Below are positions 12,153 to 56,504 of a DNA stretch of 64,000 bases, in pieces. Numbering within the stretch: position 1 is the first letter of the stretch; the number at the start of each line of letters is the position of its first letter. The stretch is from Candidatus Colwellbacteria bacterium. Its GTDB lineage: Bacteria; Patescibacteriota; Minisyncoccia; UBA6257; Colwellbacteraceae. A program made the translations under genes and the position numbers. The stretch spans positions 11,646 through 75,645 of the forward strand of contig JAQTUL010000004.1 in NCBI GenBank assembly GCA_028710275.1, read 5' to 3'. The notes beneath the pieces were generated by a model that worked only from the letters and a program-made list of their open reading frames with translations, was not told the origin of the DNA and did no database searches.

Positions 12153-13301
12153 ATGGCGAACGTAGAACAAACCAAAAAGATCGACATGGATGTCGAGAAC
12201 GAAGAGGACTTCAAACAGAGGTATCTGGATCTGAAGAGAATTTATGATTCAGAGAAAAAGGTGTTTGAATCTTCTGTGATTGTTGATACGGGTACAGAGA
12301 TCTACGCACCGTCTATTTTCACTAAGAAACCGACCGTCCCTGCACAATCTCCACCCAAGACCATTACCATGCTTAGGTGGAACTACGAAGATGATGATGG
12401 AAGTTGGGCACCAGCAACGCAAAGCTGGAATGATATCGTCACGGCAAAGTATAATGTGAATGACAAGAATGTACAGAAATTTACTGTCACGGTTGGAAAA
12501 TTTAACTATGACATATCTATTTGTGATGACAAAGGATATCAAGTAAACACGCAGACAAACAAGAAGCGAATGATTGAGTGTGAGAGAAGAGAAAAAACAG
12601 AGACACCGACTCTTCCGGTTATCGCGATCAGTCCCACGTATAATGTGGGGATTCCCGGTATCGTGTACGATGAAACCATTTTGAAAGCTTTCAAAATGTC
12701 TGGAGGTCCACCATCGGTTATTCCCATCTCTCAGGGAACTGATGAGTACATGGAGATCGAAGGCCGATTTCTGTATATTGGATACAATAAAAATCCAAGT
12801 ATGATTTCTCGTGGAGCGAGAATTACAGGAATTGATCGAATTCTAAGCCCTAATGTTGCTAAGAAATATCTTCTATCAAAGTCACTCTTATCTAACAAGA
12901 ACGAACGTCTTCTTTTTCATGGATGTAAAGAACCGTCGGTGTTCCAGAGTATTTTTAATGAAGGTCTCGATTTTAGAGAGTCTTCAGTAGGACTTCTTGG
13001 ACAGGGAATCTATATGGGAGATTCCCCCTTTTATCCACACAATGGTGGATTCACAGGATACCCTGATAAGAACGGTGTACGAACGATGTTTGTTGTAGCA
13101 TGTCTTGTTGGGTCAGAACACGATGCAGGAGATGTCTATCATTCCGATTCTACTACTAGATACGCATTTCAGGCCAAGAAAAAACCGGGTTCCAAATTCA
13201 ACTCTATTCGTGCCCAGACAACTGATGAGAATTGTGGAATCTACTGTGTGTACGATAATTCACAGTGTTATGTAACTCACGCGGTCTCTTACATTTTGTA
13301 A
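12153..13301 (+). CDS. WWE domain plus poly/mono(ADP-ribose) polymerase catalytic domain protein
   Basis: WWE-like 'LRWNYEDDDGSWAPATQSWNDIV'. PARP signature 'RLLFHGCKEPSVFQSIFNEGLDFRE...GQGIYMGDSPFY' (compare LLWHGSR...GKGIYFAD). Confidence 0.7.
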   Translation: MANVEQTKKIDMDVENEEDFKQRYLDLKRIYDSEKKVFESSVIVDTGTEIYAPSIFTKKPTVPAQSPPKTITMLRWNYEDDDGSWAPATQSWNDIVTAKYNVNDKNVQKFTVTVGKFNYDISICDDKGYQVNTQTNKKRMIECERREKTETPTLPVIAISPTYNVGIPGIVYDETILKAFKMSGGPPSVIPISQGTDEYMEIEGRFLYIGYNKNPSMISRGARITGIDRILSPNVAKKYLLSKSLLSNKNERLLFHGCKEPSVFQSIFNEGLDFRESSVGLLGQGIYMGDSPFYPHNGGFTGYPDKNGVRTMFVVACLVGSEHDAGDVYHSDSTTRYAFQAKKKPGSKFNSIRAQTTDENCGIYCVYDNSQCYVTHAVSYIL

Positions 13302-19489: not shown

Positions 19490-21379
19490 ATGCCTCCATC
19501 CCGTTCACGTGACGATGATGATGTAGTCGATAACTACTACGATCTGGACGATAAGGATTCTCGTACGGTCGGGATAAAGGAACTCGATCTAAATACTCTA
19601 TATCCACAGCATCCTCTCGACTATAAAAATGGAAGTAAATACTGTATTATCGGCAAGCCTGGTTGCCATAAGAGAGGTACAAAAATTATCTTGTTCAATG
19701 GTGAAACTAAAAATGTCGAAGATATTCAATTGGATGATGTGTTAATGGGAGATGATTCTACCCCTAGACATGTTTTAGGTCTTGCAAGAGGAAGAGAAGA
19801 AATGTACGATATTATCCCTACAAAAGGTGATAAATATACCGTAAATAAAAGTCATATTTTAACTTTAAAATCATCAGGATTTGCAAATCATCCCAAAGGT
19901 GAAGTGATAGATATTTCAGTCAATGAACTTCTTAATAAACAGCAGATATGGAGAACAAGATTCAAAGGATTTAAAGTATCGATTGAATTCGAAGAGAAAA
20001 AATTAGATATTCATCCTTATCTCATGGGATATTGGTTGGGAGATGGAACATCAAATAACGCTGAAATCACGACTGCAGATCACGAAATTGTTACGAATTT
20101 CGATTCGTTATTATATGAATATGGACTAAAATTAAGTAAGAGTGGATGTTCTCCGTACAGATATGGAATTACTCTTATTCATCAAAAAAATAGAAAGGGT
20201 AAAAACCAGTTTATGAACTGTTTGCGAGATAATAATCTTGTTAATAACAAACATATCACTCATCAGTATAAATGTAATAGTCGACAGAATAGGTTGGAAC
20301 TTCTTGCTGGATTGTTAGATTCGGATGGATCGTATAACGTGAAAAGTAAATGTTACGATTTTATACAAAAATCAGAGAAATTATTTGACGATGTTTTATT
20401 TTTAGCCAGATCACTAGGATTTGCTTGTTACAAACAACCATGTAAAAAATCATGTATGTATAAAGGAGAGAAACGAGAGGGTAATTATTTTAGATGTGTA
20501 ATAAGTGGAGACATAGACCAAATTCCATGTAGAGTAGAACGAAAAAAAGCATCCCCTCGTACACAAATAAAAGATGTTTTGGTTACAGGATTGAAAATGG
20601 TTTCTGTAGGAATTGATGATTATTATGGATTTGAACTAGACGGTAATAACAGATATCTTATGGAGGATTTTACAGTTACACACAACACCGGTAAATCAAC
20701 TATTATAAAATCTATTCTATACGCTAAAAAGCATATCTTTTCAGTAGGAGCATTTTGGTCTGGAACAGAGGATAGTAATGGGTTTTTCAAATCGTTTACA
20801 CCAACTACATTTATTAGAGATGGAATGATTGATGCGTCGAGTGCAGCATCACTTAAACCGTTAGAAGATCTCAATAAACGACAGAAGATCGCAAGAAAAT
20901 ATTTAGAACCCAGAGGAGATAATCCATGGTGTGTTGAGGTATTAGATGATTGTACTGCTGATCCTAAGTTCTTAAAGAAAACCGTTCTTAAGGATACTTA
21001 TAAAAATGGACGACACAAGGCTAAGATGCATCTTCTCTCGTTACAGTTCTGTCTTGATATTCCTACCGATACGAGAGGATTGATCGATGGTACATTTATT
21101 TGTCGAGAAGGTAACTCTAAGAATAGACTAAGATTATTTGAAAATTTTGGAAGTGGAGTCGACAATATTCACGATTGGAATGATCTTATGGATGGTCTCA
21201 CCGACGATTACTGTTGTATGTTTGTTAATAACAAGGCTACTACTAACAATATAGAGGATTGTATTCAATACTACAGAGCGGATCCTGATAAGATTCCTAA
21301 GGATTGGAAGTTCGGGTGTAAAGATTATTGGGACTTCCACTATGATAGATATAACCCTAACTTTGTCGAGACATTCTAA
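19490..21379 (+). CDS. A32-like virion DNA packaging ATPase containing an intein in the Walker A motif
   Basis: Exteins give 'CIIGKPG|TGKSTIIKSILY' (Walker A) and 'VLDDCTADP' (Walker B). They total about 290 aa, which is typical of A32. Confidence 0.8.
   Translation: MPPSRSRDDDDVVDNYYDLDDKDSRTVGIKELDLNTLYPQHPLDYKNGSKYCIIGKPGCHKRGTKIILFNGETKNVEDIQLDDVLMGDDSTPRHVLGLARGREEMYDIIPTKGDKYTVNKSHILTLKSSGFANHPKGEVIDISVNELLNKQQIWRTRFKGFKVSIEFEEKKLDIHPYLMGYWLGDGTSNNAEITTADHEIVTNFDSLLYEYGLKLSKSGCSPYRYGITLIHQKNRKGKNQFMNCLRDNNLVNNKHITHQYKCNSRQNRLELLAGLLDSDGSYNVKSKCYDFIQKSEKLFDDVLFLARSLGFACYKQPCKKSCMYKGEKREGNYFRCVISGDIDQIPCRVERKKASPRTQIKDVLVTGLKMVSVGIDDYYGFELDGNNRYLMEDFTVTHNTGKSTIIKSILYAKKHIFSVGAFWSGTEDSNGFFKSFTPTTFIRDGMIDASSAASLKPLEDLNKRQKIARKYLEPRGDNPWCVEVLDDCTADPKFLKKTVLKDTYKNGRHKAKMHLLSLQFCLDIPTDTRGLIDGTFICREGNSKNRLRLFENFGSGVDNIHDWNDLMDGLTDDYCCMFVNNKATTNNIEDCIQYYRADPDKIPKDWKFGCKDYWDFHYDRYNPNFVETF
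19664..20686 (+). mobile_element. intein (341 aa) with LAGLIDADG homing endonuclease, inserted in the packaging ATPase P-loop
   Basis: Starts 'CHKRGTKIILFNGE', carries LAGLIDADG blocks 'LMGYWLGDGTS' and 'LLAGLLDSDGS', and ends 'FTVTHN|T'. Confidence 0.75.
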
Positions 21380-36240: not shown

Positions 36241-39200
36241 ATGACCAGGAAAACTGATTTCCTCTATAAGAAGAAGCAAAATATCACACCTGTTCTTGTC
36301 TTCTCGCCAAGAATGTCTAAAGCTATCATTATCGAGTACGATTCGGAAGAGGAGATCCAGACACCGGATGAGAATTCGGATGTGGAAATTCTGGAGGAGG
36401 GAGAAGAGATCTTCGATGAGGATCAGGAGGAGACTAAGGAATCGGAACGGATTCCGGAAATGAAATCCCTGAAAATCTCCGGAGAAAAGAAGAGGAAACT
36501 TACGGAGGAGGAGATGTACGAGATTACGGACTTTCTTCAAGTTGATCCTGATAAAGACTGGGAAACATCGATGGCAGTTATGGATGAGAATCGAAACGAT
36601 CTCTTTGAGCAGTTGAAGAATATCGAGATCTATCCGAGTCAGATTCCTAAACTGAAGATGGGAATCAAAAACGATTATGAAACATCAAAGATTGAACCGG
36701 GTACCGCAATCGGGTGTGATAGTTCTCTCGCGATTGGTGAGCCGACGACACAAATGTCGCAGCCAAAGACGACTAAGGTCGTCTTGCGACAGGGTAACAA
36801 AACAATCAATACAACGATGGGGGAGTTCATCGACTCGGAGATTGAGAAGGCGTGGATGATCGTATCAGAGGACAATGGATCAGAGATTGTTCCAGACGGC
36901 GTATTCAAAGTGACAGAGATCATGACTGTTTCTAAAGACGAAAAGGTAAGTTGGAATAAGATTACCGAACTCTCTCGACACCCTGTGAATGGAGATCTTG
37001 TGAGAATCAAGACTGATAGCGGGCGAGAGACCGTTTGTACTCTCTCACATTCACTTCTCACTCGAAACCTTAATGGTGTGGTTCCTATTCTTGGAAGTGA
37101 TATTCAAGTTGGTCATCGAGTACCGGTGTTCTTTCGAACACCCGAAGTAGATAATCCTATCTCAGAGATCGAGTTGTGGAAAGATACTACGGTTGATCTC
37201 ACATCATCGTTCGGTGAGTTTATCGGAATCTACATCGCGGAGGGAAGTACTTGTAAGAGTAGTAATTCTGTTGTCGTTACCACTAATCAGGAATACTATA
37301 AAAATGTATCATACGAATTCTTTTCAGAAATGGGAAAAAACGCTAAAACAAGAGAAAAACCTCTTCATAAAATTCAGGGAAGTAAAAAGGAATATAAAAG
37401 CACGGATCACATAATCTCTCACAAGCTTCTGTCACAATGGCTTCGAACGAATATCGGTACCTACTCTCACAACAAGGAGATTCCTGGATTTATCTATGGA
37501 TGTAAGAGAGAGTTCATCGCGGGTGTTCTTCGTGGAATGTTTGATGGTGATGGTAACTTTCATGGATCGAGAAAAAGTATCAAGTATCACACAACATCGA
37601 GTGAACTCATCCAACAAGTTGCATTCCTTCTCTCGTATTTCGGTATCTTCTCAACATATCAGATCGAGAAGGAGGCTTGTGATGAACACAGAGCGTTGTG
37701 GGTTCTGTTGATCTTCGGACCCAAGTTCGGAAAGATTTTCTCCGAACAGATCGGAACTAACAACGAGAAGAATAAAAGAGAGCTTGATTCATACATCAAT
37801 GATAAGGATGGAAGAAATTTCATTGATCAGGTTCCCAACTGCGCTGAACTTGTTAGTAAGATTGGTAGAGGACTGAAACTTCCCGGCGCATCAAGAAACT
37901 ATGGTCGATGGGTGAAAAAGGAGTCTGAAGGATCTTGTATCGGTAAGAATACTCTGATCGAGTATGTGAAGCTTTTCACCGAAAAGAATGAAGAGAAAGA
38001 TGCAGGGTTCGAAGATGATATCTCTCTGCTTCAACAGGCGATCGACGCTGATGTGATCTGGGATAGAGTTGTTGAGGTTGAGATTATCAAGGCTGACCCT
38101 GACGAGAAGGTGTATGATTTCTCAGTAGCAATCAATGAAACTTTCGCTACTCAATCGGGTATCTTAGTACACAACACCTTGAATTCAATCGATTACAAAG
38201 AGCATATCGTGGTCAAAAACGGTACATCTGTAACATGCCCAAAGATTGGCGACTTTGTGGATAAAATAGTCATTGATAATAAGAAAGATGTCAAGGTTTA
38301 TGATGAGGTTACCGAATACGTAGACATCAATTTCATGAACCTGGAGACACCATGTGTCGATGAAAATGGAAAAATGCATTGGAAAAAAATAGAAGCTGTC
38401 ACCAGACATCCACCTCCGGGAGGTAATAAACTTTTGGAGGTGAAAACTCAAACGGGACGTCGAACAACTGCAACAAAAGCTAAATCTTTTTTGCTGCGAA
38501 GAGATAACAAAGTGGTCGGGGTAAATGGATCCGAATTGACAGTTGGAGATAGACTTCCGGTCACTGTTAAGTTTCCGAGACCTCTTGAAAATGACCGATT
38601 GAAAACCATCAATCTAAGTAGATATCTCAGTAAAGAGAAATTCGTATTTGGAACTGATCTCTGGAAAGCAAGAGAGATTAAGGAGAGATACAATAAAGGT
38701 GGAAGAAAAGAATGGAAAGACGAAATTAGAGAGGAATATACATATGGAGGAAGAAATACCAGATGGTGGTCTGATAATTTCGGAATCGATTTCACTCTCC
38801 CGTATCATAGATGTGATGCAGCAATGGATGCGCTCGAAGGAAAGAAGAAGGAGTATATCGGAAATGAGATTATCAAGAAAGGAATGGTGTACACAACAAG
38901 ACGATCTGTTGGAGAAGTGAATGAAATCCCAGAAGAGTTTGAACTGGATAACGATTTCGGATTTGTTGTTGGTGCTTACATTGCTGAGGGACATTGTGCA
39001 AATACCGGAACACAATGTATCATCAGTAACAATGATGAAAAGTTTCGAAAGAGAATTGAGACGTGGTGTGATAAACATAAACTCGGATATCATGTTCAGG
39101 TACAACACGATAAGAATTTTAAGGGAGCAACCAGTACAGATCTCCGAATTCACTCAACGCTAATGGTTGAATGGTTTACCAACATGTGTGGTAACTATTC

Positions 39201-52952: not shown

Positions 52953-54785
52953 ATGTCTACGAGTAAAAAACATATTGTCGGGATGGACATCGGAACAACT
53001 TATTCTTGCGTAGCTATTATGCGTAACGGAAAAGTTGAGGTGATCAGTAATGATCAGGGGAATCGTACCACCCCTTCGTATGTGGCATTTGCGGATGACG
53101 AACGACTGATCGGGGAATCCGCAAAGAATCAGGCTGCAATGAACCCCGCGAACACAGTATTCGATGCTAAGCGTTTGATCGGAAGAAATTTTGGAGATCG
53201 TACAGTTCAAGAGGATATGAAGCTCTGGCCTTTTAATGTTATCGATATCGGAGGAAAGCCTGTGATCGAGGTTCAGTATAAGGGAGAGAAGAAGAGATTC
53301 CGTCCCGAGGAGATTTCGTCGATGGTCATCACAAAAATGAGAGAGACGGCCGAGGCGTTTATCGGTGAACCGGTCAACAACGCGGTTATCACGGTTCCCG
53401 CATATTTTAACGATGCTCAAAGAAATGCTACAAAGGATGCGGGAACTATTGCAGGTCTAGTCGTGGATCGTATTATCAACGAGCCGACAGCCGCTGCTAT
53501 GGCGTACGGTTTCGACCATATTTCAAGTGGTGACGGAGAGAAGAATATTCTCGTTTTCGATCTCGGAGGAGGAACTTTTGACGTTTCCCTGTTGACTATC
53601 GAAGAAGGGGTCTTTGAAGTAAAAGCCACAGGAGGAGATGTCCATCTCGGTGGAGAGGATTTCGATAATCGAATGGTTAAGTTCTTTATCGACGAGTTTA
53701 AGAAGAAACATAAGAAGGATATCTCGTCGTCTGATCGAGCTCTACGTCGTCTACGCACAGCTTGCGAAAGAGCGAAGAGAACTCTCTCAGCTCAACTCAC
53801 AGCTGAGGTAGAGATTGATGCATTGTACGAGGGTATTGATTTCGTCTCAACAATTTCTCGAGCTCGTTTCGAAGATCTCTGTGCTGATTATTTCAATTCC
53901 ACAATGAAACCAGTGGAGAGTGTGTTGGCTGATGCTAAGATGTCAAAAGGTGATATTCATGAAATTGTTCTGGTTGGTGGTTCAACTCGTATTCCCAAGG
54001 TTAGAGAACTTCTCTCAAAGTTCTTCAACGGAAAGGAACTCTCTACCAAGATCAATCCTGATGAAGCAGTTGCTTATGGAGCAGCTATTCAGGCATCTAT
54101 TCTTAACGGAGATAAACATCAACAGGCTGGACTTGTTATTGACGTGACACCTCTTTCTCTCGGAATCGAAACCGCAGGAACTGATATGACAAATATTATC
54201 GAACGAGGGTCAACTATTCCATGTAAGAAGTCTAAGAAGTTCACAACTCATTCTCATAACCAATCAATGGTTAAGATTGTTATCTTTGAGGGAGAACGTC
54301 CTCTTACAAAGGATAATAATAGGATCGGACAGTTTGAGCTATCGGGTATTCCACCGGCTCAACCAGGTGTTCCGAAGATTGAAGTCGTGTTTGATATTGA
54401 CGCCAACGGAATTCTCGAGGTTTCAGCAACGGAGGAAACTGGAGGAAAGACGAACAAGATCAAAATTACGAACGATTCAGGACGTCTCACAAAAGCTCAG
54501 ATCGATCAAATGATTAAGGATGCTGAGATATTCAGAGATGAGGATAAGAAGTCTGTTGAGACAAGTACAGCTCGTAATCGTCTACAAACATATATATCAT
54601 CTCTGGAACCAGATGCAGAGACAAAGGGATATAAATCGAATCTTGACGAGTGTATCGAGTGGATGAAGAGTGAGAGAAGTGCTCAGGAGTACACTGATAA
54701 GTTTAACGAACTCTCAAGTACAGTATCCGGAAGCTCTTCAGAAGATCAGTCACAAGATGGTCCTCGAGTTGAGGATATTGATTGA
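52953..54785 (+). CDS. HSP70: Hsp70/DnaK-type molecular chaperone
   Basis: '[13 protein letters not shown]', '[10 protein letters not shown]', '[13 protein letters not shown]' and '[10 protein letters not shown]' are canonical Hsp70 motifs across 610 aa. Confidence 0.9.
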
Positions 54786-54851
54786 AAAGTGAATTTTAAG
54801 AATATAAAGTGGTTATAGATCACTTCTGTTTTACCACATTACAATTACCAA

Positions 54852-55172: not shown

Positions 55173-55274
55173 GTATACATGTTTTTGAATATAATATTCA
55201 AAAACAAGATCTTTTAAAAGTGATTTAAATATTATCGATGCTAGAGATAACACAAACCTATCGGTTACCCCCAG

Positions 55275-56379
55275 ATGTCTGCTCCTCCATCACACGAATC
55301 TCTACTCCGTCTTTCCCAGTATCGGGGAGACGCAACCAGCTGTATCAGTCTTCTGATCGGATCAAACTCGGATCCATCATCCACTTCTAAACTCCTTATC
55401 AAGGAGAACAGTGCAGCATCCAACATCAAGGATCGCGCAAATCGTAAGCATGTGACTACCGCTCTCAAGTCTTGTTCTGAAAAGCTCAAGACGTACAAGA
55501 GCATTCCTGATAACGGACTCGCTATTTTCGCCGGGTATTGTGTTTGACGAAACTGGGAAAGAATCGTATATTTGTGAAGCGATCACACCACCTCTTCCTA
55601 TTAAGATGGGATTGTATCGATGTGATAAGATGTTCTACACGGATTATGTTCTCTCACTTTACAAAAACTTTGATAAGTTCGGATTAGTTCTTATTGCAGG
55701 TGAAGAGGTTACGATGTATTCTCATTGTGGAACAAAAATCGACTTGATCGATAAGTTCACCGTTCACCGTCAGAAGAGTATGAAGATGGGTGGTCAGTCT
55801 GCTCAGAGATTTGGTCGGATAAGAGAGAATCAGATTGGTGAGTATGTAAAGAAGATCTGTGAACGATTGGAGAAGAACTATGTCGACTTTACGGTTGGAA
55901 GTCCATCTGTAAAGGGGCTGTTTATCGGTGGAGTAGGAGATATTAAGGACAAGGTCATCATGTCTCCGTTTCTCAACTCTCTTGTCTCTTCAAACATCAG
56001 AAAGGTTATCACTATGTCGGAGATCAGTTTGGATAAACTCATGGAATCATGTGGAGATCTCACATCGTATTCAGAGGAGGAGAAGGAATCTTTAGACGAG
56101 ATTGAGCTCTACACATCACGAGACCTGTCGAGAACAGTCTACGGGTATGATCTACTCCTTAAGAATATCAAAGATGGTGGATTAGAGAAGATCTACATCC
56201 ACTCGATGGTTGAGGAGAAGTTCGGTAAGGAGAACTTCGAACTAGCCAAGACGATGGGATGTAAGATTATACTACTTCAAGGAAAGTCAGCCAAGTCTAT
56301 CTCATTTGTTAATTCGTATGGAGGTGTACTTGGAGTTACATGGTATGATATCGAAGACAATCTTGTCGATGAAGAGTAA
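55275..56379 (+). CDS. eRF1: eukaryotic peptide chain release factor subunit 1 (eRF1), needing a +1 ribosomal frameshift at 55542..55548 (GUU UGA C)
   Basis: Frame A (55275..55547) encodes eRF1 domain 1: 'TSCISLLIGS...AASNIKDRANR...NGLAIFAGYCV*'. The +1 frame (55540..56379) continues 'FDETGKESYICE...MGGQSAQRFGRIRE' with the GGQ motif. The junction matches eRF1 'VYCGTIVTDEGKEK'. Confidence 0.8.
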
Positions 56380-56504
56380 ACAATCTCTCCATCTAACGAA
56401 TAAGAAAATTTATAATGATTATCATTATAAATTCCACCAAAAAGTGATTTCCCCATTCAAGTAGTAGATTTCATCCACCGCATCCAAACACCTCATTTCA
56501 CCAA

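Follow-up and report, generated by a model that had tools for sequence, protein, structure and literature searches.

Recoded class-I release factors have been described from two giant viruses, Mimivirus (R726) and Megavirus (mg280) (Jeudy et al., 2012; PMC3521657), in which the published shift sites are CUU UAG C and CUU UAA C, respectively. For R726, the +1 frameshift at CUU UAG C was shown by expression in E. coli, rather than in the natural host, and by mass spectrometry of the full-length product (PMC3521657). Interrupted eRF1 genes have also been reported from BsV, Edafosvirus, Terrestrivirus, Klosneuvirus, Hokovirus, Catovirus, and Tupanvirus (Zinoviev et al., 2019; PMC6582330), in a study that likewise described the viral eRF1 C-domain as being without the mini-domain of the cellular protein. 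The giant-virus eRF1 case is mentioned in a 2016 recoding review, and the consensus quoted in the literature is CUUUAG.

The gene analyzed here lies in a stretch of 64,000 nucleotides, referred to throughout as the window. The initial annotation of this DNA regarded recoding in the release factors of Mimiviridae as already described and the case, hence, as not new, and the literature confirms this (PMC3521657; PMC6582330): the recoded giant-virus eRF1 is a known phenomenon, and the window gene is a further, unannotated example of it, with the site GUU UGA C and a frameshift as its only recoding event. The features of the gene are as follows:

55275..55547, plus strand: ORF1, in the zero frame, 90 codons and a UGA; GenBank MDD4930914.1, 'hypothetical protein'.
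55456..55547, plus strand: overlap in which the zero and +1 frames are both open; the preceding +1-frame stop is TGA 55453-55455.
55539..55548, plus strand: recoding cassette UGU GUU UGA C, read directly from the sequence.
55546..56379, plus strand: ORF2, in the +1 frame, from GAC (Asp91) to TAA 56377-56379; GenBank MDD4930915.1, 'Vms1/Ankzf1 family peptidyl-tRNA hydrolase'.
55575..55577, plus strand: next zero-frame stop, TGA, ten codons past the first.

ORF1 starts at ATG 55275 and runs into the site ...GCC GGG TAT TGT GTT TGA CGA AAC TGG..., its 3' end reading ...GCC GGG TAT TGT GTT TGA C. The cassette is laid out with UGU (55539-55541) as the E-site codon, GUU (55542-55544) as the P-site shift codon, UGA (55545-55547) in the A site, and C55548 in the +4 position, and the base skipped in a +1 slip is U55545. 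The product of ORF1 corresponds to the first two thirds of the eRF1 N-domain and includes the NIKS-type motif NIKD (55422..55433), while ORF2 encodes the remainder of the N-domain (with the YxCxxxF motif as YRCDKMF, 55615..55635), then the M-domain, in which GGQ lies at 55789..55797, and a C-domain that lacks the mini-domain. Joining V90 to D91 yields a protein of 367 aa. Both frames are open solely at 55456..55547, and so a +1 shift giving the full product is possible only there; within this overlap, homology restricts the shift to the last codon.

The initial annotation had ORF1 ending at GUU UGA C and the rest of eRF1 continuing in the +1 frame from 55546, and the frames, the Pfam matches, and an ungapped alignment all agree with these coordinates and this context. 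The junction peptide that it gave, ...AGYCV-FDETGK, has to be corrected: a +1 slip gives ...AGYCV-DETGK, and the extra residue is not supported by the ungapped alignment to solved eRF1. The diagnostic tryptic peptide expected from the +1 slip is SIPDNGLAIFAGYCVDETGK. Across both strands of the 64 kb, this is the one NUU-stop-Y preceded by at least 80 open codons and followed by at least 200 open codons in the +1 frame, and the combination of NUU-stop-Y with long open frames in the eRF1 gene is more than chance. The same geometry recurs at a single other stop, at 46289 on the minus strand (TCC TAA G), which has neither an NUU codon nor a homology argument and was treated as chance.

In Pfam comparisons, ORF1 matches eRF1_1 (profile positions 7-80), and ORF2 matches eRF1_2 and, weakly, eRF1_3. 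Fusion at V90/D91 lifts the eRF1_1 score from 33.1 to 46.9 bits, with a match that crosses the junction (residues 15-123) and reaches profile position 117. Aligned with solved eukaryotic eRF1 (8ip8, 4crn), the fusion gives E ~1e-43 and no gap over residues 13-216. An AlphaFold model of the 367-aa fusion, built on 34 homologues, has a mean pLDDT of 86 and forms one N-domain, in which the junction is the tip of a beta-hairpin: strand 82-90 ends at the last residue of ORF1, and its partner strand, 96-103, comes from ORF2. The 123-position domain-1 profile (Pfam eRF1_1) is interrupted by the UGA near position 80; the earlier reading that domain 1 ends at an in-frame UGA at 55545..55547 was thus right about the stop and wrong about the domain end, the stop being inside domain 1, at the hairpin tip. 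The mini-domain of cellular eRF1 is missing from the fusion (query residues 309-325 stand opposite 8ip8 residues 324-384, a deletion of ~45 residues; 367 aa vs. 437). With the hallmarks NIKD, YRCDKMF, and GGQ, and with N, M, and C domains, the fusion is, as judged from these comparisons, a genuine eRF1/aRF1 homologue and a predicted class-I release factor.

Relatives were gathered by protein searches and by scans of viral and metagenome collections. Nineteen distinct homologues, including that of Klosneuvirus KNV1, are interrupted at the same hairpin, with the remainder in the +1 frame, and all 19 frameshifted genes carry NTT-T(GA/AG)-Y at the break, with the TT of the shift codon invariant. 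The first base of this codon is free (G in 8, C in 5, A in 4, and T in 2), TGA stops outnumber TAG stops (11 to 8), and the +4 pyrimidine is more often C (13) than T (6). The codon before the shift codon is TGT, TAT, TGG, or CAT, with UAU or UGU in 15 of the 19; the codon before CUU in E. coli prfB is UAU. An NTT synonym is used in all 16 non-redundant sequences, for which the joint chance is ~1e-6 given the amino acid, and CTT serves as the shift codon even where it is 1 of 20-24 Leu codons. Such a constrained synonymous choice, as seen in these alignments, is a signature of a slippery N-UUU site and not of protein conservation.

One of these loci (L065, the same as L073 and L074) is Klosneuvirus KNV1 itself (KY684108.1), which has TAT GTT TAG C at the same position, and a GUU shift codon was therefore already present in a published Mimiviridae genome. 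Judging from the sequences compared, the published CUU consensus is too narrow, and any NUU can serve as the shift codon; with these sequences, the shift-site rule broadens from CUUUAG to NUU-U(GA/AG/AA)-Y, with UAU or UGU preferred before it. A rough neighbour-joining tree places the window with L002, beside L004 and L005, and KNV1 on the other of its two main branches; neighbouring branches differ in the first base of the shift codon and in the identity of the stop, and NUU-U is kept. One locus, L070, was discarded because its apparent shift into another frame is due to Ns in the assembly. The proposal in the initial annotation that this eRF1 gene cannot do without a +1 shift at GUU UGA C is borne out by this site being common to the homologues, with the GUU UAG C of KNV1 at the same position, and by the mechanism described in earlier work (PMC3521657; PMC6582330).

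From these results, it is very probable that the full-length 367-aa viral eRF1 needs programmed +1 ribosomal frameshifting at GUU UGA C. What is observed here, and forms the basis of this conclusion, is the anatomy of the gene, selection on both of its frames, and the conservation of the cassette. In the proposed mechanism, a ribosome would hold peptidyl-tRNA-Val on GUU in the P site with UGA-C, a poor termination context, in the A site. Where release is slow, the tRNA would re-pair one base forward on UUU, with two of its three pairs kept, after which GAC (Asp) would be read and translation would proceed through the remainder of the N-domain and the M- and C-domains; where release is fast, the product would be a 90-aa fragment without the YxCxxxF motif and two core beta-strands. 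We infer the geometry of P-site slippage at GUU, and there is an argument against it, in that the slipped tRNA-Val would have a C-U mismatch in the first position of the codon, whereas CUU permits a G-U wobble there.

The slip would compete with recognition of the stop codon by eRF1 itself, whether host or viral, so that less full-length viral eRF1 should be made when release-factor activity is higher. By analogy with RF2, this would constitute negative feedback (autoregulation) of the viral eRF1. The stops found at the shift site in relatives are UGA, UAG, and (in Megavirus) UAA, and some relatives swap the frameshift for an in-frame stop (L007 and L068); this variety fits a general 'stop sensor', without proving one.

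A different account of the same anatomy is that of a split gene, with ORF1 and ORF2 translated separately as two polypeptides, or with ORF2 alone functional. Gene callers do annotate two proteins, and the GGQ M-domain is kept in ORF2 alone, but the break lies inside the beta-sheet of the N-domain and not between domains. Furthermore, the earliest in-frame ATG of ORF2 is at 55606, and a start there would delete strand 96-103. The overlap also always ends in a slippery NUU-stop, which would be a purposeless constraint for a split gene, and the same region is one ORF in the relatives L012 and L042. Taken with the annotated proteins and the intact M-domain on the other side, these points make a split gene improbable.

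The conserved element bears on whether polymerase slippage or RNA editing, and not the ribosome, might instead restore the frame. It takes in the stop codon and its +4 pyrimidine, which are relevant to a ribosome and not to a polymerase, and its homopolymer consists of just three T (55543-55545), where known slippage sites need longer runs (reviewed in PMC5009743). Restoration in the RNA is compatible with the DNA sequence alone, and giant-virus transcription is poorly known, yet R726 frameshifts from a plasmid in E. coli, and we consider this explanation very unlikely. By analogy with the Mimivirus R726 experiments, it would be the ribosome, and not the polymerase, that makes the shift in the window gene.

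The window comes from a metagenome-assembled genome, and the Logan contig L001, which is identical to it, may derive from the same reads, both of which would be compatible with a sequencing or assembly indel in what is really one ORF, or with a decaying, dead gene. A diverged strain from another sequencing run (L071; run ERR12387309, a 15-kb contig seen in three samples) nevertheless has the identical sequence GGG TAT TGT GTT TGA CGA. This strain differs from the window by ~10% of nucleotides and conserves the gene order Hsp70 / small ORF / eRF1, and its codon differences from the window are mainly synonymous in both reading frames (synonymous to non-synonymous, 30:4 in ORF1 and 67:19 in ORF2), and both ORF1 and ORF2 are under purifying selection. 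The 19 distinct homologues, from many samples and including a published Klosneuvirus genome, also share the position of the break and its NUU-stop-Y. An indel error or pseudogene is thereby effectively refuted, and the locus, on this comparative evidence, is neither a sequencing error nor a pseudogene; the indel that the initial annotation had named as a possible refutation was not borne out, given the identical site in L071.

The window itself provides a view of how UGA is used in this genome. Among 57 crude genes, the stops are TAA in 40, TGA in 10, and TAG in 7, and UGA closes the Hsp70 gene where the protein naturally ends; the codon does terminate translation in this genome. None of the 57 genes ends in TGA-C, and C follows only 1 of the 57 stops, compared with ~10 expected (binomial P = 1.7e-4 at 17-18% C). 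Genuine gene ends thus avoid UGA-C, and the same argument from an avoided stop context was made for Mimivirus by Jeudy et al. (PMC3521657). The gene ends of the window show a preference for TAA-A and TAA-T. That UGA is decoded as sense or read through in the host, with no need of a frameshift, would accord with the in-frame UGA at this position in L007 and L068 and with the separate upstream UGA-C readthrough stop of many relatives, but it is refuted for the window gene by the reading frames, as readthrough of UGA 55545-55547 cannot restore the protein because the zero frame closes again at 55575-55577 with no eRF1 homology in between, all homology continues in the +1 frame, and UGA is the terminator of those 10 genes.

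No stimulatory RNA structure was detected in the 100 nt downstream of the site, where the window sequence and those of seven homologues fold no better than shuffles (z-scores -0.8 to +1.5), and the 100 nt upstream of the window site likewise fold no better than shuffled sequence. A Shine-Dalgarno-like stimulator was considered and rejected: the sole G-rich element upstream, CCGGG (55532-55536), is separated from the shift codon by 5 nt, which is the wrong spacing, and its GGG (55534-55536) is the codon of the invariant Gly87.

In Mimivirus, Megavirus, KNV1, and 11 compared loci, the frameshift is accompanied by an upstream UGA-C readthrough stop. In the window, this stop is absent, with sense codons (...SNSDPSS...) in its place, and it is also absent from L071, L002/L003, L006, L064, and L069; the readthrough stop is therefore a feature of only part of the family. 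The sequence at the place of the upstream stop is ATT TGA CTN in L004, L005, L007, and L010, and ATG TGA ATC in L009. The arrangements found in this gene are as follows:

+1 frameshift only: the window, L071, L002/L003, L006, and L064.
Frameshift together with a readthrough stop: Mimivirus, KNV1, L004, and others.
A readthrough stop alone: L042.
UGA in frame where the relatives shift: L007 and L068.
Uninterrupted gene: L012.

The homologue at L007 (2500..3610 of IMGVR_UViG_2974536336_000001, a 1.47-Mb viral genome) occupies a single frame with three in-frame TGA-C stops, one of which (AGT TGA C) sits at the frameshift position of the relatives, and L068 shows the same at two positions. These two genes would require several readthrough events, unless the host gives UGA another meaning.

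Considering the arrangements together, it is possible, if rather doubtful, that the early stop in the viral eRF1 family is a modular 'termination sensor' whose form turns over freely while selection keeps only the need for a stop to be bypassed, and that the window represents a previously undescribed, frameshift-only and UGA-only subclade of a deep NCLDV lineage that has been filed as a CPR bacterium. The stop-recognition motif NIKS is NIKD in every viral homologue (window 55422..55433, and alignments A1 and A2), and, by analogy with Tetrahymena eRF1, the stop-codon specificity of the viral protein may be altered. NIKD is part of KATNIKD in Tetrahymena eRF1, a motif reported as important for UGA-only specificity in one chimera study, whereas a second found it insufficient (PMC3632111). 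Should NIKD bias the viral eRF1 towards UGA, then the loop in a UGA-only subclade would be specific to one stop, as is that of RF2, in a case of functional convergence.

In GenBank, ORF1, ORF2, and the Hsp70 gene (MDD4930914.1, MDD4930915.1, and MDD4930912.1, the last as DnaK) are on an 83,885-bp contig of a MAG named 'Candidatus Colwellbacteria bacterium'. The window, however, clearly belongs to a nucleocytoplasmic large DNA virus (NCLDV), with genes for RPB1 domain 5 with two inteins, a eukaryote-type Hsp70, PARP/WWE and RING proteins, glycosyltransferases, and many ORFans, and the contig looks like that of a giant virus mis-binned into a CPR bacterial genome. The initial annotation had called the recoding site a strong taxonomic marker, which it may be; the gene content places the window among the NCLDV, and a search with the C-terminal 500 aa of RPB1, which matched only metagenomic relatives and archaeal A'' subunits, gave no placement in a named family.

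The RPB1 gene is an ORF of 1649 aa (36241..41190, plus strand) that matches Rpb1 domain 5 only and is interrupted by two intein/LAGLIDADG insertions. The proteins most similar to it (P0012-P0021) have ~500 aa and consist of domain 5 by itself, and RPB1 may therefore be split in this viral lineage. Another intein is found in an ORF of 629 aa (19490..21379, plus strand), with Hint and LAGLIDADG homing-endonuclease domains. Eukaryote-like signalling domains occur in a protein with PARP catalytic and WWE domains (12153..13301, plus strand) and in a RING-finger protein (41255..41773, plus strand). Outside the window, archaeal aRF1 genes labelled as Woesearchaeota or DPANN (L046-L061; P0172, P0182, P0183, and P0200) have an in-frame insertion of ~130 to 430 aa directly after GGQ, which carries Intein_splicing/Hint Pfam domains and is an intein in the active-site loop of a release factor.

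With regard to transcription, the motif AAAAGTGA occurs on the plus strand at 54785..54792, 55216..55223, and 56440..56447, in each case 59-67 nt upstream of the ATG of one of three consecutive genes (54852, 55275, which is that of eRF1, and 56505), and may be a local promoter element; no enrichment of AAAAGTGA was found across the whole window. The Mimivirus early motif AAAATTGA has 4 matches in the window, compared with ~10 expected, and is not enriched, and a promoter k-mer scan of the window returned AT-rich words only. No tRNA genes were found in the window.

These results call for a correction of the annotation, in which MDD4930914.1 and MDD4930915.1 become one recoded eRF1 on a giant-virus contig, and the presence of a NUU-stop-Y cassette within an eRF1 gene could serve as a cheap flag for mis-binned viral contigs. 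As the window gene has a single recoding event, compared with two in R726, it would also offer a simpler construct for probing the autoregulation of eRF1 through frameshifting that has so far been inferred.

Among published genes, that of KNV1 (KY684108.1; PMC6582330, Fig. S3E) is homologous to the window gene, is split at the same hairpin, and uses the same GUU shift codon. It differs in having a protein ~25% identical to that of the window, a UAG stop in place of UGA, and an upstream readthrough stop. In common with R726 and mg280, the window gene encodes a giant-virus protein of eRF1 type, with an early stop within the N-domain, the remainder in the +1 frame, and a site of the form NUU-stop-C; the stop context is avoided at genuine gene ends in both cases, and for both a feedback like that of RF2 has been proposed. 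By comparison with their published descriptions, the window differs from these genes in its shift codon (GUU, not CUU) and its stop (UGA, in place of UAG in Mimivirus and UAA in Megavirus), and in lacking a second recoding event, the upstream UGA-C readthrough stop.

The bacterial prfB gene (CUU UGA C) is, like the window gene, a release-factor gene interrupted by a stop that its own product helps to decode, and in both the P-site tRNA would slip by +1 from NUU to UUU, before a UGA that is followed by C. The likeness to prfB drawn in the initial annotation therefore stands for the NUU UGA C cassette and does not go beyond it. prfB encodes RF2, whereas the window protein has Pfam matches to eRF1 families only, and the P-site codon of the window is GUU. 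The Shine-Dalgarno-like stimulator of prfB, 3 nt upstream of the shift codon, has no counterpart in the window, and eukaryotic ribosomes have no anti-Shine-Dalgarno sequence. The position of the stop differs as well, at codon 91 and inside a domain in the window compared with about codon 26 in prfB.

Stop-dependent +1 shifts are also known from eukaryotes, in antizyme (UCC UGA U) and at the 'shifty stops' of Euplotes (AAA UAA/UAG); the antizyme shift uses a 3' pseudoknot and polyamines and serves as a sensor. The window site resembles these in combining a +1 shift at a slowly decoded stop with a translation system of eukaryote type. Its P-site codon is different from theirs, and, in contrast to the pseudoknot of antizyme, no 3' structure is detectable in the 100 nt downstream of it. 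The quantity sensed would also differ from that of antizyme, being, for the viral eRF1 site, release-factor activity. To the known cases, the present comparison adds a shift codon that can be any NUU, a subclade without the upstream UGA-C stop, and a contig misfiled under a CPR bacterium.
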